DNA of 64,000 nucleotides from an uncultured Acidobacteriota bacterium (GTDB taxonomy: Bacteria; Actinomycetota; Acidimicrobiia; Spongiisociales; ZC4RG35), in assembly GCA_963749415.1 (NCBI GenBank), contig CAVVMG010000001.1, forward strand, positions 1,676,745-1,740,744. Direction: 5' to 3'. Shown piece after piece: positions 42,743 through 56,090 of the stretch; position 1 is the stretch's first letter; each line of letters begins with the position of its first letter. The notes under the pieces are model-generated. The model had not been told where the DNA came from and did not search any database. It saw only the letters and a program-made list of their open reading frames with translations. Made by a program: the position numbers and the translations under genes.

Positions 42743-42991
42743 ATGACTAGCCCGAACGAGACCACCGCAGATGTACTCGACTCGGTGTGGGTCATCAGCC
42801 ACGACCACGACCTCGATGAGGACTGCAGTCCGACCAAGGCATGCCGAAACATGAAGGACGTGACCTTCGACGGTTACGCGGACCCCGGGAGCGATCTCGG
42901 AGAGGCATGGCGGGCCAAGCTGGCCCGGGAGGGCAAATTGACCGAGTCGGGCGGAAGTGTCCGCGAGTTGATCTTGGGTCAGGGCGAATAG
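42743..42991 (+). CDS. Hypothetical protein (82 aa)
   Basis: GGAG RBS, typical codon usage, operon position. Confidence 0.6.
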   Translation: MTSPNETTADVLDSVWVISHDHDLDEDCSPTKACRNMKDVTFDGYADPGSDLGEAWRAKLAREGKLTESGGSVRELILGQGE

Positions 42992-43034: not shown

Positions 43035-43928
43035 TTGAGCAGCGACCCGGCTCCCAAGGCACCGGCGAGCGTCGAAGAGCTCACCGATCTTCTCCGTCAG
43101 GGCCGCTACCTGGCTGATCGCGGCCTCGCCACATCCATCTTCGTCGCAATGACCCTGGGGCGTCCGCTCCTCCTCGAGGGTGAGGTGGGGGTGGGGAAGA
43201 CCGAAGTTGCCAAGGTATTGGCGTCGGTCTTCGACCGCAGGCTCATCCGCCTCCAGTGCTACGAGGGCATCGACACCAATCAGGCCTTGTACGAGTGGGA
43301 CTACGCCCGCCAAATGCTCCAGATCCGGGCGCTGTCCGAACGGGGCCTCAGCGATGAGGGCGAGGTCGACAAGCTGTTCGGCCCCAAGTTCCTGTTGGAG
43401 CGGCCCTTGCTGACGGCGATACAAGCCGGCGACCGGGCGGTGCTCCTGATCGACGAGATCGACCGGGCCGATGACGAGTTCGAGGCCTTCTTGCTCGAGC
43501 TCCTCTCCGACTTCCAGATCACCATCCCGGAGATCGGGACCATCGCCGCGGAGGCCCCGCCCCTGGTGATCCTCACCTCCAATCGCACCCGTGAGCTCCA
43601 CGATGCCCTCAAACGGCGTTGCCTTTATCACTGGGTCGGATACCCAAGCGCCGAACGCGAGGTCGAGATCGTGCTCGTCAGGGCACCTGGGGCCACCGAG
43701 ACATTGGCCCGCAAAGTCGTGGAGGCGGTGAACCGGTTGCGCCAGCTCGACCTGACCAAGCCACCGGGGGTCGCGGAGACTTTGGACTGGGTGGCCACGC
43801 TCAACGTCCTGGGCCGGTCCGAGTTGGATGCCGGCACGATTGAGGACACCCTCGGAGCAGTGATCAAAGAACGCGACGACCTGGAAGCCGTGCTCGATCA
43901 CCTCGAGGGGATTGCCGTCGATGGCTGA
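43035..43928 (+). CDS. MoxR-type AAA+ ATPase, CoxD-like
   Basis: GEVGVGKTE, LQCYEG, LLIDEIDRAD, LKRRC. Confidence 0.88.
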   Translation: MSSDPAPKAPASVEELTDLLRQGRYLADRGLATSIFVAMTLGRPLLLEGEVGVGKTEVAKVLASVFDRRLIRLQCYEGIDTNQALYEWDYARQMLQIRALSERGLSDEGEVDKLFGPKFLLERPLLTAIQAGDRAVLLIDEIDRADDEFEAFLLELLSDFQITIPEIGTIAAEAPPLVILTSNRTRELHDALKRRCLYHWVGYPSAEREVEIVLVRAPGATETLARKVVEAVNRLRQLDLTKPPGVAETLDWVATLNVLGRSELDAGTIEDTLGAVIKERDDLEAVLDHLEGIAVDG

Positions 43929-45087
43929 CGGGCTCGCCGTCGAAGAAATCGTTGAGCCGGGTCAGGCGCCATACGTCGAGATGCTGGTCGCCTTCGGCGA
44001 GGCGCTCCGCCGGGCCGGGCTGCCCGTCGGGTCGGGCGACATCCTCGTCTACTGCGGTGCCATGGCGTCGCTCGATCCAGCGGATCTGGTCGATCTGTAC
44101 TGGGCCGGTCGGACCACGCTCGTAACTCGTCGCGACCGAATCGCCGTCTACGACCGGGTATTCCGCACCTTCTTCCTCGATGCCGCCGGGGACCTGCCCG
44201 AACCGGTCAAGCTCGCCCTCAAGCAATCTTCGATCGAGAACCAGTCCGTGATCGAGGTCCCCTCGACCGAGCCCGGGATCAGAGGCAAAGACGAGGAGGA
44301 GGCCAGGCTGGGGCTCATGGCGTCCGACATCGAGCTCTGGCGTCACAAGGAATTCGCGGCCTGCACCCCCGAGGAGTTGGCTGCCCTGCGCCGGATCATG
44401 GCCAGGATCAGGGTGATCCCACCACGACGACGCTCGCGGCGCACGAGGGCGGGTGCGGCTGGAGGTAGGCCCGATCTGCGGCGCACCGTCAGGGCGACGA
44501 TGCGGACGCACGGCGAGCCGTCGGAGCTCTTCTGGCGTCAGCGCAGATTGAAGCGACGGCCCCTGATCCTGATCCTCGACGTCTCGGGGTCCATGGCCGA
44601 GTACTCGCGCAACCTCCTCCAGTTCGCCCACTCGGCCAAGCGGGCGAGCTCCCGCGTCGAAGTGTTTTGCTTTGGCACCCGATTGACCCGGATCACCCGG
44701 GCGTTGGAGAGGAGGCGGCCTGATGACGCCCTCGACGAAGCAGCGCGGTCGGTGTTCGACTGGGAGGGCGGGACACGGATCGGCCAAGCCATCGACACGT
44801 TCGTCCGCGATTGGGCACGCCGTGGCTTGAGTCGCGGTGCCATCGTGGTGATCTGCTCTGACGGGCTCGACCGCGGCGACCCGGCGCTCTTGTCCGGAGC
44901 GATGGAAAGGCTCTCCCGGCTCAGTCACAAGGTCGTGTGGATGAACCCACACAAGGGCGACAACACCGACTTCCAGCCGACGACGCTGGGGATGATGGTG
45001 GTCGCTCCGTATGTGGACCTCCTGCTCTCCGGCCACGACCTCGCCAGCCTCGAGGAGCTCGCGGAGCTCCTGCCCGACCTCCGGTGA
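43921..45087 (+). CDS. VWA domain protein, CoxE-like
   Basis: DVSGSM MIDAS, WEGGTRIG, SDGLDRG, WMNP. Confidence 0.88.
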   Translation: MADGLAVEEIVEPGQAPYVEMLVAFGEALRRAGLPVGSGDILVYCGAMASLDPADLVDLYWAGRTTLVTRRDRIAVYDRVFRTFFLDAAGDLPEPVKLALKQSSIENQSVIEVPSTEPGIRGKDEEEARLGLMASDIELWRHKEFAACTPEELAALRRIMARIRVIPPRRRSRRTRAGAAGGRPDLRRTVRATMRTHGEPSELFWRQRRLKRRPLILILDVSGSMAEYSRNLLQFAHSAKRASSRVEVFCFGTRLTRITRALERRRPDDALDEAARSVFDWEGGTRIGQAIDTFVRDWARRGLSRGAIVVICSDGLDRGDPALLSGAMERLSRLSHKVVWMNPHKGDNTDFQPTTLGMMVVAPYVDLLLSGHDLASLEELAELLPDLR

Positions 45088-45101: not shown

Positions 45102-45401
45102 ATGAGATGGAGCGTGTCGATGGTGGCCGAAGGTGACCGGGTCATCGAGCTGGAGGAAGTCGTGGAGCTCGCCGACGCGGTCGCCATAAGCGACGGGATC
45201 GCCACCGGGATGGGGACCACCTCGTACGGTGCCCAGATCGTGGTAGAGGCCGACAGCAGCGATGAGGCAGTGGACAAGGCGATGGGGTTGTTCGCGGCTG
45301 CGGCGGAGAAGGCGGGGATGCCTCCGTGGCCGATCGTCCGCGCCGAGACCGTCGCCGACGAAGAGGAACTTGACTACGGCTTCGAGGCCCCCACGGCATG
45401 A
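45102..45401 (+). CDS. Hypothetical acidic protein (99 aa)
   Basis: Operon position, ATGA overlap with the next gene. Confidence 0.65.
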   Translation: MRWSVSMVAEGDRVIELEEVVELADAVAISDGIATGMGTTSYGAQIVVEADSSDEAVDKAMGLFAAAAEKAGMPPWPIVRAETVADEEELDYGFEAPTA

Positions 45402-45838
45402 TCCGGCTCGGGTCCCTCGCCGGGTATCCATTCGAGGGCCCGAGGGTGCTGGCCGGTTGGACCCCGCCACAACTCGCCGCGGTGTTCGCCGTGATGTACA
45501 AGCCTCAGCCCAAGGAGAAACCCGAGGAACACGCGGTCCTCTACGTCGGCGAATCCGCCGACCTCTCCAGCGAGAAGTTCCCCTTCAACCATCCCTCGGC
45601 TCCATGCTGGCTGAAGCGGGTGGAGGGGAGGCGCTTCGAGCTCTATGTCTGCACCTATGAGGCGCCTGGCGCTGCCAGGGCCCACCGGGAGCAGATCGTC
45701 CGGGAGCTGGTCGCGGTCTATCGGCCCGGGTGCAATCCAGATCAATACGACCAGGCGTGGGAAGACCACTGGATCGGGGAGTACCAGACACCGGGCACCA
45801 CCGGCCCGCTCACCACCGGGCGCCAACCCTCCGACTGA
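45398..45838 (+). CDS. Hypothetical protein, degenerate GIY-YIG-like
   Basis: AVFAVMY...VLYVGES...RELVAVYRPGCN resembles the GIY-YIG motif layout. Confidence 0.5.
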   Translation: MIRLGSLAGYPFEGPRVLAGWTPPQLAAVFAVMYKPQPKEKPEEHAVLYVGESADLSSEKFPFNHPSAPCWLKRVEGRRFELYVCTYEAPGAARAHREQIVRELVAVYRPGCNPDQYDQAWEDHWIGEYQTPGTTGPLTTGRQPSD

Positions 45839-45859: not shown

Positions 45860-46222
45860 CTATCCCTCGGGCAGGTAGCCGATTGCTTCGTGAAAGCGGG
45901 AACGCCGACGCCCTGATGCCGGAAGCGCTGGGCCTCTCGCCGGCACCTTCTCTGGCTCGTAGGTTGCTCCGACCACGATCCCCTCGGCCATCCCATAGAG
46001 CAGAGGCAAGGCACCGGCTACCACTCCTCCCGTGCGATTCACGTGCTCGAGGTTGCCCTCGATCGAGGCAGCATTGGCCCCGATCTTCTTCACAAGCTCG
46101 TTGCACTCCTCGAGGTTGGTGGCGACCCGGGTCAATTGCCCGCCCACGATCCAGAGGTAGATCGCCAGCCCGGCGATCAGCAGCACGATGTCGACAACGG
46201 TGAAGAGGATCAGGCTGTTCAC
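45860..46222 (-). CDS. Small single-TM coiled-coil protein E (120 aa)
   Basis: N-terminal TM, then heptads; GTGA overlap with D. Confidence 0.75.
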   Translation of the reverse strand: MNSLILFTVVDIVLLIAGLAIYLWIVGGQLTRVATNLEECNELVKKIGANAASIEGNLEHVNRTGGVVAGALPLLYGMAEGIVVGATYEPEKVPARGPALPASGRRRSRFHEAIGYLPEG

Positions 46223-46512
46223 GAGCGCACCTTCCCCAGCACCCGGCCCAGGAACAGGTGGTGCTCCAGGCCTTCAACGAGGACCAGATCGAGTCCAGCG
46301 GCGGTGGTATTCAGCAGTTCGGCGTCCGCGGTGTTGGCCTCCGCCTGAGTCAGCGTGGCCTTGATCGTCAGCACCCGGCGGTCGATGGTCCTCACCAGCA
46401 AGACCAGGATGGTGAGCAGGGCGGCCACCGCGACCACGACGACGAGCCCGGCCCAGTTGGCGATCTGCCACAGGGTCTCCTGATTCTCGGTCAGGGCGAA
46501 GAGCATGGTCAA
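46219..46512 (-). CDS. Small single-TM coiled-coil protein D (97 aa)
   Basis: TM, then heptads; GGGAGG RBS, TTGA overlap with C. Confidence 0.75.
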   Translation of the reverse strand: MTMLFALTENQETLWQIANWAGLVVVVAVAALLTILVLLVRTIDRRVLTIKATLTQAEANTADAELLNTTAAGLDLVLVEGLEHHLFLGRVLGKVRS

Positions 46513-46769
46513 CCTCCCAGCCTCTGCCGGCCCCGCTTCAAACCTTCGATCACGTTGATCGCCATCGTGTTGGTGGTGGCGAGGTCGGCGAGTGCTGCTG
46601 TGTTGCTGACGGACTTCTGCAGGCTGTCGTCGATCAGCTTGGCCTCGTTGCCGATCCTCCGGGCCAGGATCAGGATCGGGAGCACCAGGGCCACTACCAC
46701 GAGGACGACAACGATCCCGATGACGTATCCGACCAGCCAGCCGGTGTTTCCTTCGAAGAGCTCGTTCAT
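46509..46769 (-). CDS. Small single-TM coiled-coil protein C (86 aa)
   Basis: TM, then heptads; similar to D. Confidence 0.75.
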   Translation of the reverse strand: MNELFEGNTGWLVGYVIGIVVVLVVVALVLPILILARRIGNEAKLIDDSLQKSVSNTAALADLATTNTMAINVIEGLKRGRQRLGG

Positions 46770-46779
46770 GATCGATGTC

Positions 46780-47007
46780 TCATATCGATTCGCAGAAGTC
46801 GCTGACCGGCTTCAGGCTGGCGTTCACCGAGCTCACCACTGCGGGCACGGTGCTGGTCTTGGCGGCCACCACTTCGACACCCCCGGTGAGGGCACGCAGT
46901 GTCTTCAGAGTGGCGGAGAGATGGCCGATCACCCGGCTCAACCCCAGTGCCGCGGCTGCGATTATCAGGGTGGCCAGGACCAGGGTCACGATTGCGGCTG
47001 CTGGCAT
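46780..47007 (-). CDS. Small single-TM coiled-coil protein B (75 aa)
   Basis: GAGGAGGGAG RBS; similar to E. Confidence 0.75.
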   Translation of the reverse strand: MPAAAIVTLVLATLIIAAAALGLSRVIGHLSATLKTLRALTGGVEVVAAKTSTVPAVVSSVNASLKPVSDFCESI

Positions 47008-47017
47008 TTCTCCCTCC

Positions 47018-47272
47018 TCAACCCAACAACTTGCCGACCGAGCCGGCGTAACGGACGGCGCCGTTGGCGACCTCGTCGATGGTCCCGTCGGTGACCGCAA
47101 GAAGCTCGGGCACCCTGTCGACCTCCCCGATGAGGGCCACGCCGCCGGCCAGGATCTCGTCCGACGCCCCGCGGATCCTCTCCAACGCCGCCAGCACCCG
47201 GTTGAGCAGGGCGACGAGGATGGGCACCACCGCCAAGAGCAGGATCGCGTTCCCGATCCACCACCAAGTCAT
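47018..47272 (-). CDS. Small single-TM coiled-coil protein A (84 aa)
   Basis: GAGGAGG RBS, 10 nt after coxG. Confidence 0.75.
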   Translation of the reverse strand: MTWWWIGNAILLLAVVPILVALLNRVLAALERIRGASDEILAGGVALIGEVDRVPELLAVTDGTIDEVANGAVRYAGSVGKLLG

Positions 47273-47282
47273 GGGTTCCTCC

Positions 47283-47864
47283 TCACGTCTGGTTGGGCTG
47301 GTAGGGCAGGAAGAACCTGCGGGCGACCCGCTTCAACGCCATCCAGGCGGCCTGGAAGCCGATGCTGAGCCCGCTGGCGGACTTCGTCTGGACCTGGTCT
47401 GCCGATAGGCCCTGGTCAAACGCGTGGATGCGGGCCTGCATGTTGGTGGCGAAGTCCTTCATCATCACCGCGCTGACATCGCCGATCATTCCCCGGCCGT
47501 ACTGGGCGGCGGCGCCGGACAGCTCGAGGTCCTGCTCCACTTCGACTCGGGTGCCATTGGCCGTTGGGACCAAGCGGGCGGTGAGGCCGAGTGCGGCCTG
47601 CCCCCGGCCCTTGTCATCGGCGCCGGAGGCGTCGACGACGATGGTCCTGGTCGCCTCGTCCATCGTCTTGACGGCCGCCTGACCTGCGAACTGCATCTGG
47701 ACCGGTCCCAGCCGGATATTGACGTTCCCGGCGTACTGGTCCGGTCCGGTCTCGTCGGTCAGGGAGGCACCGGGAAGGCAGGATGCCACCTGGGGGATGT
47801 CCTGGCAGAACTCCCAGACTTTCTCGATAGGGAGGGCTACCTCGAAGTCATTCTTGATCAGCAT
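47283..47864 (-). CDS. coxG: CoxG (SRPBCC domain)
   Basis: VASCLPGASL, RLGPVQMQFAG, GAAAQYGRGMI. Confidence 0.88.
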   Translation of the reverse strand: MLIKNDFEVALPIEKVWEFCQDIPQVASCLPGASLTDETGPDQYAGNVNIRLGPVQMQFAGQAAVKTMDEATRTIVVDASGADDKGRGQAALGLTARLVPTANGTRVEVEQDLELSGAAAQYGRGMIGDVSAVMMKDFATNMQARIHAFDQGLSADQVQTKSASGLSIGFQAAWMALKRVARRFFLPYQPNQT

Positions 47865-48804
47865 GGAGGCTCCTGGGGAGGTAGGCGGCCGGATCCTTCT
47901 CGAACGCAACCCGGCACCCTGGGGCACAGAAGTAGTAGGTCTCGCCCTCGTGCTCCAGTGGGCGGCTGGTCTCGTCGGCAGGCACGGTCATCCCGCACAC
48001 CGGGTCGATGGCGGTGGCCGGGCCTTCGGCTGCGGCGTTGGGGCTGGACGTCAGCTCCCCCTGGGCTCGAAGTTGGACCAGCTCGGCGAGCACCGCCACT
48101 GCGATCTCCTGGTGTGAGGTGTGGCCAAGGTCGAGGCCGACCGGCACCCGGACTCGCTCCAGGAGGTCCTTGGAGACTCCGCGGTCGGCGAGATAGCCGA
48201 GCACCGTCTCTCCTCGCTTCTTGGAGGCGACCAGGCCTACGAACGCCGGCTGCCCGACCACGGCCCGCTCGATGGCGTCCTCGTCGCCATGGCCCTGGGT
48301 GGCAACGATCACCACCGAGGTGTAGTCGGTGTCGGCGCTGGTGAAATTGGCCGCGTCGATCAGGCTGGCCCGCCAGCCGAGGGCAGTGGCCAGGTCGACC
48401 AGGGTGGCAGCCATCGGGGACCGGCCGACCACCACGAGATGCGGGCTGGGGATCACCGGCTCAATGTAGAGCTGCATCGCCCCCTCGGACTGGCAGGACA
48501 TGGGGAGGAACATCATTCCCTCGGGAACCTCGCCGAATTGGTCGGTGGTCCCGAGCAGGATGAGGCGCGGTTGGCGGTCCTCGATCGCCCTTTGCGCCTC
48601 GCGGATCACCACCGGCTCGGCACATGCCCCCCCGATCCATCCGTGGATGTCGCCATCCGCCGTGATGATGGCCCGCGCCCCCTGGTGACCCGATGAAGGC
48701 GCCTGACGCCAGACCACCGTCGCCAATGCGAACTCCACACCCTGGCGAGCCAGGTCGTTGGCCATCTCGACCATCCGCCAGCCATCACCGTGCTGTGCGT
48801 TCAT
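47848..48804 (-). CDS. XdhC/CoxF family protein fused to a C-terminal YHS domain
   Basis: WIGGACAE, SCQSEG, VGLDLG; DPVCGM...YYFCAPGC. Confidence 0.85.
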   Translation of the reverse strand: MNAQHGDGWRMVEMANDLARQGVEFALATVVWRQAPSSGHQGARAIITADGDIHGWIGGACAEPVVIREAQRAIEDRQPRLILLGTTDQFGEVPEGMMFLPMSCQSEGAMQLYIEPVIPSPHLVVVGRSPMAATLVDLATALGWRASLIDAANFTSADTDYTSVVIVATQGHGDEDAIERAVVGQPAFVGLVASKKRGETVLGYLADRGVSKDLLERVRVPVGLDLGHTSHQEIAVAVLAELVQLRAQGELTSSPNAAAEGPATAIDPVCGMTVPADETSRPLEHEGETYYFCAPGCRVAFEKDPAAYLPRSLHADQE

Positions 48805-51182
48805 GCCGTCCTCACCGGCGGCGCGCCGCCGACGTCCTGGCCGGTCTGAATTGCCTCGAAGACGCGGTCGGGGAACAGGGGCATGTCGATGTTGCGGGCC
48901 CCGGTGCCCTTGAGCGCATTCATCACCGCGTTGACGAAGGCGGCCGGCCCGCCGACCGCAGCGCATTCGCCGATGCCCTTCGCTCCGATCGGGTGGTGGG
49001 GGCAAGGGGTGACCACCTCGTGGAGCTCGAAGCCCGGCGTCTCCCACGCCGTCGGCAGCAGGTAGTCGGTGAAGTTGGAGCCGATGCAGTTCCCCTGGGC
49101 GTCGAAGGTGATGAACTGCATGTTGGCCATCGCGTAGGCCTCGGTGAGCCCGCCCATGATCTGGCCCTCGACGATCATCGGGTTGATCCGCACCCCGCAG
49201 TCGTCGACGGCCACCATGCGCAGCACGTCCCACACCCCGGTCTCCGGGTCCACCTCGACTGTGACGATGTAACAGGCGAAGGGCCAGGTGAGGTTGGGCG
49301 GGTCGTAGTAGGCGACGTTCTCCAAGCCGGGCTCCATCCCATCGGGCATGTTGGAGTAGGCGGCCATCGCGCATTCCTGGATGGTGACCCCGCGCTCGGG
49401 CTGACTGCGGACGTAGAAGCGCCCCAACTCCCATTCGACGTCCTCTTCGGAGATCTCGAGGAGGTGGGCCGCGAGTTTGCGGGCCTTGGCCTTGATCTTG
49501 CGTGAAACCATGGCTACGGCCGCCCCGGCCACCGGGGTGCTCCTCGAGGCGTAGGTGCCCATCCCGAATGGCGCGGTGTCTGTGTCGCCCTCCTCCACCA
49601 GGATGTCCTCCGCCGGCAGGCCAAGCTCGTGGGCGACGATCTGGGCCCAGGTGGTCTCGTGGCCCTGGCCCTGGGACTTGGCTCCGGTGCGAAGCAACGC
49701 CTTGCCGGTCATGTGGATCTTCAACTCGGCCGAGTCGAACATCTTGATGCCGAGGATGTCGTATTCCCGGCTGTTGCCGGCACCCAATGGCTCGGTCATC
49801 GTGGAGATGCCGATCCCGAGGAGGCGGCCCCGTTTGGCAGCCTCCTCCTTTTGCTTCAGGAAGTCGGAATAGCCGATGGCCTCGAGACCGACGTCGAGGC
49901 ACTTGCCGTACTGGCCGGAGTCGGTGAGGAACCCGTAGGGAGTGCGGTGGGGGAAGTCGTCGTCGCGGACGAAGTTGACCCTGCGGAACTCGGCCTGATC
50001 CATGCCCAGGTCATCGGCCGCGGCCTGGACCATTCGCTCCTGGAAGAACATGGCTTCGGTGACGCGGAATGAGCAACGGTAGGCGACGCCCCCGGGTGCC
50101 TTGTTGGTGTACACCCCACGTGCGTCGAGATGTGCGGTGGGGATGTCGTAGCAGGCGAACGCCGAGTGCATGAGCCCGACCTTGAACTTCGAGGGCTGGG
50201 CGTCCGAGAAGAAGGCTCCGTGGTCGGCCAGGGTCTCCATCCGCACCCCGAGGATGCGGCCGTCCTTGCGCAGTGCCATCTCCCCATGGAGGTAGATGTC
50301 ACGGGCAAACCCGGTCGAGATCAGGTTCCCGGTGCGGTCCTCGATCCACTTCACCGGCCGCTCGAGGAGGATCGAGGCCAGTATCGAGGCGACATAGCCC
50401 GGATATACAGGCACCTTGTTGCCGAACCCGCCACCGATGTCGGGAGAGATGATCCGGATCATGTGCTCCGGAAGCTCGGCCACCAGGGCCACCGCGGCCC
50501 GGATGATGTGGGGGGCTTGGGTGGTGAGGTAGACGGTGAGCTTGGAGGTCGCCCGGTTGAAGTCGGCGATCGACCCGCAGCACTCGATCGGCGAGGGGTG
50601 GGAGCGCGGGTAGTGGAGGTCGATCTTGGAGACCAGGTCTGCCTGGGCGAACGCCCGGTCGGTGCCCTCCCTGTCGCCCACCTCCCAGTCGTAGATCACG
50701 TTGTTGGCCTGGTTCTCCTTGTCATCGCGGATCAGCTCCGCACCATCGGCTAGCGACTGGAAGGGATTGACCATCACGGGGAGCGGCTCGTAGTCGACCA
50801 CGATCGCCTCGCAGGCGTCCTTGGCGATGTATGGGTCGTCGGCGATCACACAGGCGACCTCCTGGCCTTGGAAGCGGACCTTGTCCGTGGCCAACACCGC
50901 CTGGGTGTCATAGGAGAGGGTGGGCATCCAGGCCAGGTTGCGCGCTGCCATGGTCTCCCCGGTGAGTACCAGACGGACGCCGGGCATCGCCCAGGCCTTG
51001 GAGGCATCGATCGAGTTGATCCGGGCGTGAGCCATAGGGGAGCGCAGGATCTCCATGTGCAGCATCCCGGGCAGCACCACGTCGTCCAGGTAGTTGCCCT
51101 TGCCGCGGATGAACCGGTTGTCCTCTACCCGGCGCCGGCTGGCGCCGAGGCCACCGATCTTGATCTCGTCGACCGCGGTCAC
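48801..51182 (-). CDS. coxL: Aerobic CO dehydrogenase large subunit, form I
   Basis: Active-site loop VAYRCSFR, GGGFGNK, AKGIGE; 793 aa. Confidence 0.95.
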   Translation of the reverse strand: MTAVDEIKIGGLGASRRRVEDNRFIRGKGNYLDDVVLPGMLHMEILRSPMAHARINSIDASKAWAMPGVRLVLTGETMAARNLAWMPTLSYDTQAVLATDKVRFQGQEVACVIADDPYIAKDACEAIVVDYEPLPVMVNPFQSLADGAELIRDDKENQANNVIYDWEVGDREGTDRAFAQADLVSKIDLHYPRSHPSPIECCGSIADFNRATSKLTVYLTTQAPHIIRAAVALVAELPEHMIRIISPDIGGGFGNKVPVYPGYVASILASILLERPVKWIEDRTGNLISTGFARDIYLHGEMALRKDGRILGVRMETLADHGAFFSDAQPSKFKVGLMHSAFACYDIPTAHLDARGVYTNKAPGGVAYRCSFRVTEAMFFQERMVQAAADDLGMDQAEFRRVNFVRDDDFPHRTPYGFLTDSGQYGKCLDVGLEAIGYSDFLKQKEEAAKRGRLLGIGISTMTEPLGAGNSREYDILGIKMFDSAELKIHMTGKALLRTGAKSQGQGHETTWAQIVAHELGLPAEDILVEEGDTDTAPFGMGTYASRSTPVAGAAVAMVSRKIKAKARKLAAHLLEISEEDVEWELGRFYVRSQPERGVTIQECAMAAYSNMPDGMEPGLENVAYYDPPNLTWPFACYIVTVEVDPETGVWDVLRMVAVDDCGVRINPMIVEGQIMGGLTEAYAMANMQFITFDAQGNCIGSNFTDYLLPTAWETPGFELHEVVTPCPHHPIGAKGIGECAAVGGPAAFVNAVMNALKGTGARNIDMPLFPDRVFEAIQTGQDVGGAPPVRTA

Positions 51183-51207: not shown

Positions 51208-51729
51208 TCATGAGCCGTCCAGCTTGGCGGCGGCCCATTGCACCGCCTTGACGATGTTCTGATAACCGGTGCAGCGACACAGGTTTCCGCTCAGCGCCCA
51301 CCTGATCTCGTCCTCGGTTGGGTTCGGATTCACATCGAGCAGGGCCTTCGATGACATCATCATCCCCGGGGTGCAGAAACCGCACTGCAGCCCGTGCTCC
51401 TCCTTGAACCCTTCCTGGATCGCGTGCAGCTCGCTGGGCCCGGCGAGGCCTTCTACGGTCATCACTTCGTGGCCGTCGGCCTGCACGGCGAACATCGTGC
51501 AACTCTTCACCGGCTGACCATCGACCAGGACTGTGCATGCGCCGCAGTTGGTCGTGTCGCATCCGATGTGGGTCCCGGTCAGCTTGAACCCTTGACGGAG
51601 CAAATGGGCGAGGAGGAGCCGTGGCTCGACCATTGCCGACCTCTGCTCGCCGTTGACGGTGAGAGTGATCCGGTGGACCGGGATGTCGTCGGACGGATCG
51701 GGGCCTATCTCTTCGAGCAGAGTGGCCAT
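51208..51729 (-). CDS. coxS: CO dehydrogenase small (2Fe-2S) subunit
   Basis: [26 protein letters not shown]. Confidence 0.93.
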
Positions 51730-52604
51730 CAGGCAGCCTCCTCTTTCGACTGCAGCAACCCGGTCAGGATGCGGCGAGTGAACACCCGCACCAATTGCCG
51801 CTTGTACTCGGCGCTGCCGCGGTGATCCGTGTGGGGCTCTGCCGCTCGGGCGGCGAGATCCGCGGCCTCCCCGATGACCTCGGCCGTCAGCGGCCCCCCA
51901 ACCAGCAGCTGAGCAGCGTCGTCGGCTGGGATGGTCGAGCCGCCCACACCGGTGAGGCCGATTCCCGCTCGCGTGACGGTGCCGCCGGAGCGGTCGATGG
52001 ACACCGCGACTGCCGCCGTGGCGAAGTCGCCAACCCGGCGCTCCAGCTTGAGGTATCCGCCCGCAGACTCGCCCTTGGGTGCGGGAACGATGGCTTCGAC
52101 GGCGATCTCATCGACGGCGAGCACGTTCTGAAATGGGCCCGTCACGAAGTCCCTCATTGCGATGGTGCGCCGGCCATTCGGGCCCTGGACCACGACCTCA
52201 CCGTCGAGGGACATCATCACCGACGCCCAGTCGCCCTGAGGGTCGGCGTGGCAGAGTGAGCCGACCAGTGTGCCCCGATTGCGCACGATGGGATCGGCAA
52301 CGAGGGGGGCGGCGGCTGACATCGTCGGCTGATGTTCGGCGAGGACCGACGAACGCTCCAGGTCGACGTGGCGGCAGAGGGCGCCGACGCGAATTGTCCC
52401 GTCGGCATCGACTTCGTGGTAGCCGAGGCCGGGCAGGTTGTTGATGTCCACCAGCATCTCGGGCGATGCGAAGCGGAGCTTGATCATCGGGACCAGGCTC
52501 TGCCCTCCGGCCAGGACCTTGGCATCACCCCCACCGTCGGTGAGGAGGGACAACGCCTCCTCGAGGGAGCGAGGAGCCTCGTAGCGGAATCGTGAGGGAT
52601 AGAT
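51729..52604 (-). CDS. coxM: CO dehydrogenase medium (FAD) subunit; apparent ATC start
   Basis: [31 protein letters not shown]; AGGAGG 5 nt before ATC-TAT-CCC gives 291 aa. Confidence 0.9.
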
Positions 52605-52626
52605 GGTTGCCTCCTGAAACTCTGGC

Positions 52627-52908
52627 TCAGGCTTGTTGTTCTGGATCCCTCGCCGGGGTGCTCTGACGTGGGAAAGACTGCGGGTCGGGAATGGCCACCG
52701 GCGTCGACTCGGCCGCCGGATCAGGTCTCGGCTCCTGGTGGGGCGGCCACGGTCCCTGAACCGGTTGGCCGGCAACCTTGAGATAATCGACGATCTGCGG
52801 CCAGGCCCAGATCGTGGGGCTCGGGCCGGTCCTGGGGGCATTTTCGATCAGTTCATAGAGGCGGGGATTGCCTCGACTGTGACCAGATGCCTCGACTGCC
52901 AAGCTCAA
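52627..52908 (-). CDS. Putative small protein heading the cox operon (about 91-93 aa)
   Basis: GAGGAG near two TTG codons, stop 22 nt before coxM, GC3-rich core. Confidence 0.5.
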   Translation of the reverse strand: MSLAVEASGHSRGNPRLYELIENAPRTGPSPTIWAWPQIVDYLKVAGQPVQGPWPPHQEPRPDPAAESTPVAIPDPQSFPRQSTPARDPEQQA

Positions 52909-53024: not shown

Positions 53025-53795
53025 TCAGTCGTCTTCAGGGCGTTGCTGGTGGACCCGTCCCGGCCGCCCCATGAGCGACACCCCGGTGCCGTGCCCGTAG
53101 CGCACCAGTGTCATCTCGGCCAGGATCGATACCGCTACTTCCTGTGGGCTCTCGGCCCCGATATCGAGGCCGACCGGGCCCCGGACCCGGGCAATGTCCT
53201 CCTCGGAGAACCCCATCTCCCGCAAGCGATTCACCCGCAGGTCCTGGGTGCGCCGGCTCCCCATGGTTCCGATGTAGCGGACCTGGCTCTTCAGGGCGGC
53301 TTCGAGAACCGGATCCTCGTGGGCTGCGTTGTGGGAGAGGATCACCACCCAGGTGCGACGATCGAGCGGGATCTGGCCGATCACCTCCTGGGGCCAGCCC
53401 ACGACGACCCGTGCGGTGGGGAAACGGTCATCGGTGGCAAAGGCACCCCGGGAGTCGACGACGGTGACCCGGTAGCCCATCTGCGAGGCAAAGCTGGCCA
53501 GGGCCTGGCCAATGTGAACCGCCCCCACAATCAGCAGCTCCTGAGGCGGGGCGAGTGACTCGATGAAGACGGTATGCGGGGGGTATTCGAGGGCCCGGTG
53601 TTGCTCGTGATCCATCAGGACCAGCGCGTCTGACACGACGTCGGAGGGGGTTCCGGGAGGGAACTCGCCGGCCACCGCCGCGCCGCTCGAGTCCAACACC
53701 ACCTTGGCTCCGGTATTCGGTCCGTCGACAAATGTGAGCACCGCCCCGTATTCCTCACGGGAGAGGATGCCTTCAATAGCGAGGAGCGGGGTCAC
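53025..53795 (-). CDS. XdhC family, C-terminal/Rossmann part
   Basis: [36 protein letters not shown]; GTGA overlap. Confidence 0.85.
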
Positions 53796-54100
53796 CAGGG
53801 CTCGATGAAGACGTCGATGGTCCCACCGCAAGCCATGCCCACCTCGAAGGCGTCGTCATCTGCGATCCCGTATGTGACCGTCTTCGGCTCTCCGCTCTCG
53901 ATCACCTGTTGGGCGTGGAGGAACACGTCGTTCTCGACACAACCCCCACTCACCGACCCCTCCATATCGCCGGCGTCGGAGACCAGGAACTTGGACCCCT
54001 CGGGGCGCGGAGCGCTGCCATGCACCCGGATCACGGTGGCAACCGCGACCTTCTTGCCTTCGCCCACCCAGCGGTTGCGGACCTCCAACTGGTGTCTCAT
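53792..54100 (-). CDS. XdhC family, stand-alone N-terminal domain
   Basis: [31 protein letters not shown]. Confidence 0.88.
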
Positions 54101-55215
54101 GCCCTCGCCATCCCGCTGATCGACTCCAGCACCCCGACCACCCCCCGGAAGTCGTTGACGCTCGCAGCGGGGAGCAGCTGGTCGACGTGGGGTAGAACCG
54201 CCTGCATCCCTCTAGTCGCCGGGGCATAGCTCTCCCGGGCGGCGAGGGGATTGAGCCAGATCACCCGGTGCACAGATCTGGAGAGTCTCGCCATCTCATA
54301 CGACAACAACGCCGGGTCACCACAATCCCATCCATCGGAGAGTACGAGCACGATCGGACCACCTCGCGCCAGCCGTCGGCTCCATACCCGGTTCCAGGTG
54401 GCCAACGCCTCCCCGATCTTGGTGCCCCCTGACCAGTCGGGCACCCGCTCTGACACCCTGGCCAGAGCGGCCTTGGGGTCCCGCTTCTCGAGGTCGTCGG
54501 TGATGCGGGTCAGCTCGGTCGAAAAGGTGAACACCTCGACGTTGCGGAGCCGACGTGACGCCGAATGTGCGAAGACGAGAAACAGGTCGGCATACCTGTC
54601 CATCGACCCTGAGATGTCGGCGATGATGATCAGCGGCCGCTCCCTGCGTCTCCGCTTCTTCCACCGGAGCTCCATGAGGTCGCCGGTTGGCCCGACGGCG
54701 CCGTGCAGGGTGCGCCGCAAGTCGGGTCGCCGGCCTTCGCCGCTCACCCAACGCCGTGTCTTGTAAGAGGTGGGGTGCCAGAGCATCGTCATCACCAGCC
54801 GCCGGGCCTCGGCGAGCTCCTCGTCGTCGAGCTCGGCGAAGTCGCGCTTGCTCAGACGCTCCAAGGCGGATGTCCCTCCCCGGTCGGTGGTGTCGCTCGC
54901 CGCCTCGCCGCCCGGCAACTCGATCAGTGGCATCGTGCTGCTCGAGGGCGCCGGCTGTCGGTTGGGATCCTCGAGTTTCCTGGGCCGGAGCCGGCCGAAG
55001 AAGAACTCGAACTCCTCGTCGAACAGCGGGATCTGGGAAGGGTCGGTGACGGTGAGGGAGCGCAGCGCAGATCGGGTCTGGCCGGGTCGGGAGAGGTCGA
55101 TGAGGCTCATCGCCCTAGCCATGTCGGTGGTCTGGTCCGAGGTGACGGTGAGGCCCCGCCGTCGCAGCGCTCCTGAGAAGTCCGTCAGCTGATCGATGAT
55201 CCCGGCCGTGCTCAT
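54097..55215 (-). CDS. coxE: VWA domain protein CoxE
   Basis: [25 protein letters not shown]. Confidence 0.85.
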
Positions 55216-56090
55216 CCCACCAGCTGTTCGAGCCCGGCCCCGGTCACCGTGTCGATGTCGTCCTTGTACTTGAGGACCACTCCGAGGGTGCGCTCGATGG
55301 TCGGCACGCTGAGCTCGCCGGCTCCGAGAAGGCGCAACGACTCGGCCCAATCCAGGGTCTCGGCGACACCGGGTGGCTTGAACAGCTCCATGCGCCGCAG
55401 GTCCTGCATCGCGGTTGTTATGGCCGCGGCCAGCCCGTCCTCGAGGGCGGGGACCTTGCGCCGGATGATGTCGGCCTCGCGTTCCGGGGTCGGATAGTCG
55501 ATCCAGTGGTAGATGCAGCGCCGCTTCAGGGCGTCGTGTATCTCTCGGGTCCGATTCGACGTGAGAACCACGATCGGCCTGGTCTCGGCGATCACGGTTC
55601 CGATCTCCGGGATGGTGACCTGGAAGTCGGAGAGCAACTCGAGGAGAAATGCCTCGAATTCCTCGTCAGCACGGTCCAACTCGTCGATGAGGAGCACCGG
55701 GCGCCGCCCTCCGCGACTGGCCTCGATTGCCTGGAGCAGAGGTCGGGCGATCAGGTACTCACGGGACATGATGTCTTCGGGGGTGGCGGTGGCGCCCTCG
55801 CCCCGGGCCTCGAGGAGACGGATCGCCATCATCTGCCGGGCGTAGTCCCACTCATACAGGGCCTGCCCCACATCGAGGCCCTCGTAGCACTGGAGTCGGA
55901 TCAGGTCCTCGCCTGTGGCCGAAGCGAGCACCTTGGCGACCTCGGTCTTGCCCACCCCGGCCTCACCCTCGAGAAAGAGCGGGCGCCCCAGTTGGATCGC
56001 CAAGTGGATGGCCACCACGAGGTCTTCGTTGGCGAAGTAATCCTGGTCGTCGAGTGTGCTCGCCAGGTCCTCGATGGTGCTCGGGATCAC
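55212..56090 (-). CDS. coxD: MoxR-type AAA+ ATPase CoxD
   Basis: GEAGVGKTE, LQCYEG, LLIDELDRAD, LKRRC. Confidence 0.85.
   Translation of the reverse strand: MIPSTIEDLASTLDDQDYFANEDLVVAIHLAIQLGRPLFLEGEAGVGKTEVAKVLASATGEDLIRLQCYEGLDVGQALYEWDYARQMMAIRLLEARGEGATATPEDIMSREYLIARPLLQAIEASRGGRRPVLLIDELDRADEEFEAFLLELLSDFQVTIPEIGTVIAETRPIVVLTSNRTREIHDALKRRCIYHWIDYPTPEREADIIRRKVPALEDGLAAAITTAMQDLRRMELFKPPGVAETLDWAESLRLLGAGELSVPTIERTLGVVLKYKDDIDTVTGAGLEQLVG

Follow-up and report, generated by a model that had tools for sequence, protein, structure and literature searches.

How soluble, high-affinity carbon monoxide dehydrogenases (CODHs) and hydrogenases deliver their electrons to the quinones of the membrane is a live question. 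For the hydrogenase Huc the solution is the HucM tube, for the CODH of Mycobacterium smegmatis it is a tethered CoxG, and for hydrogenase groups 1h, 1l and 1m it is at best modelled. Does a further solution lie in five small genes, here called A to E, that follow coxG in the form I cox operon of an uncultured bacterium? The operon lies in a 64,000-nucleotide (nt) stretch, referred to as the window, of contig CAVVMG010000001.1 (positions 1,676,745 to 1,740,744, assembly GCA_963749415.1), deposited under the name of an Acidobacteriota bacterium and placed by GTDB in the Acidimicrobiia. We found that the five genes accompany form I cox operons across many Actinomycetota and that, judged by profile comparison, they have one-to-one homologues beside [NiFe]-hydrogenase genes. 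On balance we lean towards regarding A-E as a small hetero-oligomeric membrane module, a portable dock for soluble trace-gas oxidoreductases.

Five small genes behind coxG

The array is read from the minus strand and consists of the following genes, with lengths in amino acids (aa) and, where noted, ribosome-binding site (RBS) and G+C content at third codon positions (GC3). All five products are single-pass proteins with one transmembrane (TM) helix.

Gene A, 47018..47272, minus strand: 84 aa; ATG start; RBS GAGGAGG; GC3 0.93; A/C/D superfamily, invariant C-terminus NGAVRYAGSVxKLLG.
Gene B, 46780..47007, minus strand: 75 aa; ATG start at 47007; RBS GAGGAGGG; B/E superfamily.
Gene C, 46509..46769, minus strand: 86 aa; A/C/D superfamily, motifs NTAxLxxLxTT and GLxRGRxRLGG.
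Gene D, 46219..46506, minus strand: 95 aa; ATG start 2 nt past the stop codon of C; RBS GGGAGG; A/C/D superfamily, EGLEHHLFLGRVLxKVRS invariant.
Gene E, 45860..46222, minus strand: 120 aa; GTG start overlapping the stop codon of D (GTGA); B/E superfamily with a cox-specific C-terminal extension.

The gaps from coxG to D measure 10, 10, 10 and 2 nt, D and E overlap by 4 nt, and this tight spacing, within -4 to 13 nt, is the same in 80 genomes. No terminator-like sites were found inside the array; A-E are translationally coupled and form one operon with coxG. GC3 ranges from 0.79 to 0.93, as against 0.38-0.53 at second codon positions, and the ratio of non-synonymous to synonymous substitution rates (Ka/Ks) is 0.12-0.13, compared with 0.11 for CoxG (13-14 orthologues each). 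The codon bias and the low Ka/Ks show that A-E are real proteins under purifying selection. A longer reading of gene B, as an open reading frame starting with TTG at 47100, was rejected in favour of the ATG at 47007 behind its RBS.

No family for any of the five proteins was found in Pfam or NCBIfam, and an exact-sequence look-up of protein D from the window returned no record. Sub-threshold matches to ATP-synt_B, DUF2561, Rv0361_Cterm and IL32 were discarded as noise from TM helices and composition. ATP synthase subunit b (PF00430) does resemble these proteins in its layout, a TM helix at the N-terminus and behind it a long helix in the cytoplasm, and the Joint Genome Institute labels many D homologues accordingly. 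Protein D, however, scores 15.0 bits against this family (cut-off 28, E 0.027), its genomic context is unrelated, and A, B, C and E give no match.

Each protein has a single N-terminal hydrophobic stretch (hydrophobicity score KD19 2.5-3.5). Across about 80 orthologues per family, lysine and arginine are essentially absent ahead of this helix, and 1.3-4 of them lie within the 15 residues behind it. This charge bias gives an N-out/C-in topology, with the helical C-terminal parts on the cytoplasmic side, which is also that of CODH and CoxG. Behind the TM helix, hydrophobicity in A, B, C and E recurs with a period of 3.4-3.5 residues (maximum at 102-106 degrees per residue); conservation has its maximum at this angle in all five families, with the conserved residues lying on one face of the helix. 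Such a periodicity points to amphipathic helices of the kind that pack in a bundle. An AlphaFold2 model of D based on an 83-sequence alignment gave one helix (residues 3-94) with a mean predicted local distance difference test score (pLDDT) of 70, and a model of E from its single sequence gave a helix (2-86) with a disordered basic tail (pLDDT 74).

Protein E alone among the five carries a second hydrophobic stretch (median KD19 1.52). Its extension combines a hydrophobic segment rich in Gly and Ala, NRTGGVVAGALPLLYGMAEGIVVGA, with a basic tail behind it, PASGxRRSR, and both parts are highly conserved. Protein D has an invariant His-His pair, while B and E contain fairly conserved, non-invariant Cys. 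No catalytic motif was evident in any of the five proteins. PDB-wide sequence and profile searches with C/D-type and B/E-type profiles found no natural homologue; the B/E profile matched designed coiled-coil hairpins, including the 6-helix barrel sc-apCC-6, a match that reflects heptad pattern and composition and not ancestry.

The initial annotation had described five coupled reading frames of 75-120 aa, each with one N-terminal TM helix, and the coordinates, RBS, GC3 and KD19 values given above bear this out. It had further called them five paralogues. With the window sequences alone, only C and D are significantly similar, over their full length (30% identity, z 7.2), and B and E marginally so (z 3.7). 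Profile comparison with hhalign, using profiles of cox-linked and hydrogenase-linked members, gave probabilities of 96.7% for A-C, 96.9% for A-D, 97.6% for C-D and 99.3% for B-E, so that the pairings C/D and B/E and the likeness of A to C and D are sound. Between A/C/D and B/E, similarity was not significant even with deep profiles. At the profile level, A-E thus fall into two superfamilies, A/C/D and B/E, and the idea of one single paralogous family was dropped.

Are these genes a regular part of the cox operon? Homologues are numerous: at 90% clustering, the database holds 588 for C and 4185 for D, a combined C+D profile gathers 452 clusters at 50% identity, and a D-profile scan of species-representative GTDB genomes detected at least 340 species. 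We compared the window with 83 related cox loci, made up of the best 80 of the at least 340 genome matches and three metagenome loci. The order coxM-S-L-(xdhC/YHS)-coxG-A-B-C-D-E is found in all 83, wherever the DNA extends, and downstream a conserved 146-aa gene, coxE and coxD converge on the array. All five small genes are present in order in 80 of the 83 loci, with 81 orthologues found for A and 82 for B. Co-occurrence with form I cox genes, which had been proposed as a check, is therefore invariant in the best 80 genome loci, and none of the 83 loci contains hydrogenase genes.

Median identity to the window protein is 74% for A, 69% for B, 62% for C, 70% for D and 64% for E, compared with 69% for CoxM, 59% for CoxG, 60% for CoxE and 87% for CoxL; by this measure, the small proteins change at the pace of enzyme subunits. 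The best 80 genomes belong to Actinomycetota (Acidimicrobiia, Nocardioides, Micromonosporaceae, Streptosporangiaceae, Trebonia, Ilumatobacteraceae and Nanopelagicales/Planktophila) with Nocardioides soli DSM 105498 and N. mangrovi as cultured examples. The carriers include lineages that rank among the most abundant in freshwater and in soil. In the form I clusters of Nonomuraea and Thermomicrobium, coxG is not adjacent and the module is absent. Regarding taxonomy, loci L004, L005, L008, L010, L012-L015 and L017, whose protein D shares 86-91% identity with that of the window, come from MFD metagenome-assembled genomes labelled Acidobacteriota; near-identical contigs of other projects are labelled Acidimicrobiia, and the Acidobacteriota label looks wrong.

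The CoxG encoded directly ahead of the array provides a second line of evidence. In M. smegmatis, the menaquinone shuttle CoxG has a C-terminal TM helix of its own as a tether (PMC12202499); the initial annotation had mentioned the shuttle but not the tether. The CoxG of the window has no TM helix (tail KD19 0.78), and the tail stays at or below 1.45 in 76 module-linked orthologues, which agrees with the suggested co-occurrence with a CoxG that lacks a TM anchor. In place of an anchor, these proteins share a conserved amphipathic tail, ASGLxIGxxAAxMALxRVxxRFFLPYxP. In Afipia carboxidovorans, the CoxG tail reaches a KD19 of 1.97 over ALSVLVFSILLGAHWCCIG, and tblastn detected no A-E homologue in the cox cluster of this organism. 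The C-terminal anchor of M. smegmatis and A. carboxidovorans would do the same job as we propose for A-E, with the difference that there the anchor helix is fused to CoxG, whereas here an amphipathic tail stands beside five separate TM proteins. CoxG matches on plasmids were too distant to serve as further comparators.

Homologues beside [NiFe]-hydrogenases

A second genomic context was reached through a protein search seeded with the most divergent C-like representatives, followed by inspection of the contigs. All seven divergent contigs inspected carry tandem arrays of three to five small genes, and five of these arrays adjoin, usually divergently, hydrogenase subunit genes. Genes for the small (PF01058/PF14720) and large (PF00374) subunits are present at four of the five; the fifth shows the small subunit only, its large-subunit gene being picked up by tblastn alone, at the contig end. 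Regarding the remaining two arrays, one (L168) lies a few kb from hydrogenase genes and the other (L169) has only DUF1059 and hyp maturation genes as neighbours. Genes for HycI, a TPR protein, NifU, CooC-type ATPases, DUF1059, a BirA-like protein, PadR and HypCDE(F) surround the arrays.

Hidden Markov models built from cox-linked A-E alone recognise the hydrogenase-linked reading frames one-to-one, each scoring best with its own letter. E-values range from 1e-17 to 3e-21 for a', 1e-13 to 2e-18 for b', 1e-16 to 3e-21 for c', 1e-13 to 6e-18 for d' and 1e-10 to 2e-15 for e'. Same-letter comparisons of cox and hydrogenase profiles reach hhalign probabilities of 98.3-99.6% (99.5% for A and a'). On these alignments, A-E are homologous one-to-one to the small TM proteins of a [NiFe]-hydrogenase cluster.

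As called, a'-e' are 80-106 aa long and have the same architecture as A-E. Beside both enzymes, the TM helix of the B/E family contains an invariant Tyr-Leu pair, and that of E and e' has an additional conserved acidic residue. There are also differences: e' (84-106 aa as called) lacks both the hydrophobic Gly/Ala-rich segment and the basic tail of E, and the equivalent of the His-His motif of D reads EALRHDA in d', with only one His kept.

A metagenome scan with the b'/e' motif LGKVTFGVRA, taken from the B/E-type alignment, added 80 loci. Among 30 hydrogenase-type loci of at least 6 kb, hydS and hydL occur in 25 and accessory genes only in four; none has cox genes. The two subunit genes are adjacent in every hydrogenase-linked locus seen. 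Around them, the small genes occur in the orders DUF1059-c'-a'-d'-e', a'-b' ... hydLS <> c'-d'-e', a'-b'-c'-d'-e' (L124) and c'-d'-e'-a'-b' (L168), from which it follows that an AB and a CDE block recur.

To which hydrogenase does this second set belong? The large subunit is 39% identical to the group 1h HhyL, and the gene content of the cluster matches that published for group 1m, namely HybD/HycI peptidase, NifU, CooC, TPR, BirA-like and DUF1059 proteins; the assignment to group 1m rests on content and the 39% identity, not on phylogeny. Two small single-TM proteins were noted in group 1m clusters, with no function given (PMC9561532). These were published as 82-92 aa long, and the a'-e' proteins of the 1m-like clusters are homologous to A-E. 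The window differs from this arrangement in several respects: its array lies in a form I cox operon and not beside genes of the hhmS/hhmL type, whereas the 1m-like clusters have a NiFe hydrogenase as partner, no CoxG, another gene order, and an e' without the extension of E. In a plasmid collection, which contains no group 1l cluster, tblastn detected homologues of neither D nor c' nor e'. At the sensitivity of this search, group 1h hydrogenase clusters on plasmids thus appear to be without the module.

Further features of these clusters were observed in passing. Extra or duplicated copies of c' and d' (and a'), including an inverted c'-d' pair, occur in both L101 and L110 (6768-9255) and in L111 (7948-10455), and show that the module can expand. 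A conserved protein of about 119-129 aa without a Pfam family bears a C-terminal Cys/His-rich motif, HGECxxxCWCxxSxEEAxxC (L085 8956-9342; L086 8772-9161; L084 476-835; L087 9829-10203). It usually lies beside the PadR regulator and a CooC-type ATPase and is a candidate metal-binding or redox-sensing partner. One database protein, P0393 (185 aa), reads as c' joined directly to a'. Given that such a fusion would be inconsistent with both halves being N-out, it probably reflects a missed stop or start in gene calling; on these grounds it was rejected as a pseudo-dimer for structure prediction.

Dock, conduit or maturation platform

What could the same five proteins do for two such different enzymes? 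Considering that the module is common to a Mo-Cu flavoenzyme and a NiFe enzyme, its role is more readily sought in docking or quinone coupling than in cofactor chemistry. Both enzymes are soluble, cytoplasmic and of high affinity and must feed membrane quinone, and this common need points to what the module may provide. In the dock that we tentatively favour, five N-out/C-in TM helices would hold cytoplasmic amphipathic helices that pack as a bundle. In the cox operon, the module would keep the system of CoxG and CODH close to the membrane on its cytoplasmic face, and the docked, anchor-less CoxG could exchange menaquinone locally with the bilayer. The likely contact points would be the amphipathic tail of CoxG and the cox-specific extension of E. 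The suggestion that a membrane-anchored assembly serves CoxG and CODH had been made in the initial annotation, and it gains strong indirect support from the cox linkage, the hydrogenase-linked homologues and the anchor-less CoxG; the single family of that annotation has given way to two.

Several points weigh against a dock of this kind. Co-assembly, stoichiometry, the contact with CoxG or CODH and the effect on quinone exchange are all matters that we infer. Many hydrogenase clusters have four and not five members, which indicates that the stoichiometry is not fixed. The docking interface is not obviously shared between the two systems, since hydrogenase clusters have no CoxG and a motif resembling the CoxG tail, looked for at the C-termini of HydS, was not found there. 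The inverse relation between the module and a TM anchor on CoxG is suggestive and has two comparators only (Afipia and M. smegmatis). In addition, the monomer models of D and E are confident only in or near the TM segment, and the genomic contexts are known from the best 80 of at least 340 genome matches, so that other contexts may exist.

Could the module itself be the path of the quinone? In this alternative, which we consider unlikely, A-E would form a HucM-like tube whose hydrophobic lumen conducts menaquinone to CoxG and CODH, or else to the hydrogenase's distal FeS cluster, or would provide a quinone site. There is precedent: HucM is a homotetrameric coiled-coil tube that carries menaquinone for the group 2a hydrogenase Huc (PMC10017518), and AlphaFold models of HylTM1-5 are tube-like scaffolds that tether a hydrogenase to the membrane for quinone access (PMC13554262). 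The heptad-like periodicity and the small-residue-rich helices of A-E fit a tube, as does, for all its compositional nature, the match of the B/E profile to designed coiled coils including sc-apCC-6. The invariant Tyr-Leu pair of the B/E TM helix and the acidic residue of E and e', kept beside both enzymes, could be read in the same way, and in hydrogenase clusters that lack a CoxG-like carrier something else must reach the quinone. The lumen, however, is hypothetical, the monomer models are uninformative about a tube, the designed-protein match is one of composition and not of homology, and CODH is already served by CoxG as a carrier.

HucM is also a limited analogue of the proposed dock. The two are alike in that an amphipathic helical assembly would link a soluble trace-gas oxidoreductase to the membrane. 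HucM differs in being one protein of 189 residues that forms a homotetramer, associates peripherally with the membrane and has no TM helix; no Huc chain was among the PDB-wide matches of the C/D-type and B/E-type profiles, A not having been searched separately. The closer parallel is found in group 1l, where five short TM proteins, HylTM1-5, are encoded between hylS and hylL (bioRxiv 10.1101/2020.08.06.239558). Likened by description, both sets comprise five short single-TM proteins in the cluster of a soluble high-affinity trace-gas enzyme. The tethering scaffold modelled for HylTM1-5 also speaks for the dock, and it embodies the idea put forward in the initial annotation. The Hymenobacter roseosalivarius genes differ in lying between hylS (SMB94698) and hylL (SMB94678) and not after coxG, and the role of their products is likewise only predicted.

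The third explanation, a platform for maturation, appears improbable to us. It would have the module pass Cu and Mo, or Ni and Fe, from membrane transporters to the maturation ATPases, with no part in electron transfer. Both contexts are indeed rich in maturation genes (coxD, coxE and xdhC-YHS in one, hypCDE, CooC, NifU and HycI in the other), D has its invariant His-His, and B and E have their fairly conserved Cys. CoxD is reportedly associated with the membrane in Oligotropha. Yet neither the cofactors nor the machineries that mature them are related, only a single His of the D motif is kept in d', the Cys residues are not invariant, and A-E share their transcript with the structural genes and coxG, with coxD and coxE on the opposite strand. 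A role specific to Cu or Mo, considered on account of the YHS fusion, the His-His of D and the Cys of B and E, was downgraded because the same five families accompany a NiFe enzyme.

Some other membrane role, such as coupling to a terminal oxidase or supercomplex, sensing or regulation of expression, or stabilisation of the membrane in dormancy, is very improbable: the hydrogenase arrays do have a PadR regulator and a Cys-rich protein behind them, both enzymes are persistence enzymes and A-E show no evident catalytic motif, but the subunit-like conservation and the strict position after coxG fit a structural partner better, and no regulator stands beside the module in the cox cluster.

The dock could be extended to a more general proposal, which we regard as possible though rather doubtful. 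A-E, a'-e' and possibly HylTM1-5 would then be versions of one ancient, portable five-subunit socket, a hydrophobic helical conduit leading from the bilayer to the electron-exit site of soluble atmospheric-gas oxidoreductases. This shared coupling device would have been exchanged between CODH and [NiFe]-hydrogenases, with the CoxG tail plugging in via the extension of E. If true, it would explain how trace-gas oxidation is wired to menaquinone in freshwater Nanopelagicales (acI) and in soil Acidimicrobiia.

How much of this is new? For hydrogenases, modules of this kind have already been published, as predictions. The initial annotation's remark that no such module had been described accordingly holds for the cox-linked version, for which no published account of small TM genes behind coxG came to light, and not for HylTM1-5 (PMC13554262) or the group 1m pair (PMC9561532), which are published. 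What appears to be new is the cox-linked module, together with the one-to-one homology that joins the two enzyme systems. One five-protein set is common to form I CODH operons and a cluster for a hydrogenase of high-affinity type across many Actinomycetota, and anonymous hypothetical proteins thereby become a defined candidate coupling module with testable contacts, namely the CoxG tail and the extension of E. When genomes are annotated, or trace-gas oxidation is surveyed in metagenomes, these genes should be counted with the cox and hhm clusters.

The surrounding cox cluster

The array is preceded by the structural genes of the operon, and three genes converge on it from the other side:

coxG, 47283..47864, minus strand: 193 aa; SRPBCC quinone-carrier homologue (PF06240, E 4e-17).
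xdhC/coxI-type gene, 47848..48804, minus strand: chaperone of the molybdenum cofactor (Moco) fused to a YHS domain (PF02625, PF13478, PF04945).
coxL, 48801..51182, minus strand: large subunit of form I Mo-Cu CODH, by Pfam; AYRCSFR at residue 367.
coxS, 51208..51729, minus strand: [2Fe-2S] small subunit (PF01799, PF00111).
coxM, 51729..52841, minus strand: FAD medium subunit (PF00941, PF03450).
Conserved 146-aa gene, 45398..45838, plus strand: convergent on gene E; no Pfam match.
coxD, 43035-43928, plus strand: MoxR AAA+ maturation gene convergent on the operon, by Pfam and synteny.
coxE, 43912-45087, plus strand: VWA maturation gene convergent on the operon, by Pfam and synteny.

The true start of coxM is probably internal, near 52600, since the Pfam match begins at residue 84 of the reading frame. 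Just upstream of coxM, a second maturation set occupies 53025-56090 on the minus strand, with a MoxR AAA+ gene (55212-56090), a CoxE-type VWA gene (54097-55350) and an xdhC that is split into an N-domain (53792-54100) and a Rossmann domain (53025-53831). These genes give the cluster two sets of coxD, coxE and xdhC, and duplicated sets are also found in related loci such as L004-L017. The YHS/TRASH-type domain at the C-terminus of the XdhC/CoxI chaperone is putatively metal-binding, which is of interest given the Mo-Cu enzyme; the xdhC/YHS gene is missing from L021, L023, L025, L056, L059, L078 and L079.

A second coxMSL-like cluster lies within 10 kb of the form I operon in L022, L057, L070, L072, L081 and L083. 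Its large subunit is 49-59% identical to the CoxL of the window, and no A-E module was seen beside it. Further small genes without a Pfam family are an acidic one of about 99 aa (about 45105-45401, plus strand) and one of 82 aa (42743-42991, plus strand). Together with the 146-aa gene, which is found in the same place in 75 of the 83 related loci, they have size-matched calls at the same positions in L001 and L002. Between the end of E and the 146-aa gene, an insertion of about 1.5-3.5 kb is present in L010, L013, L014, L015, L017, L068 and L069; in the window, this junction measures 21 nt and resembles a variable insertion point.

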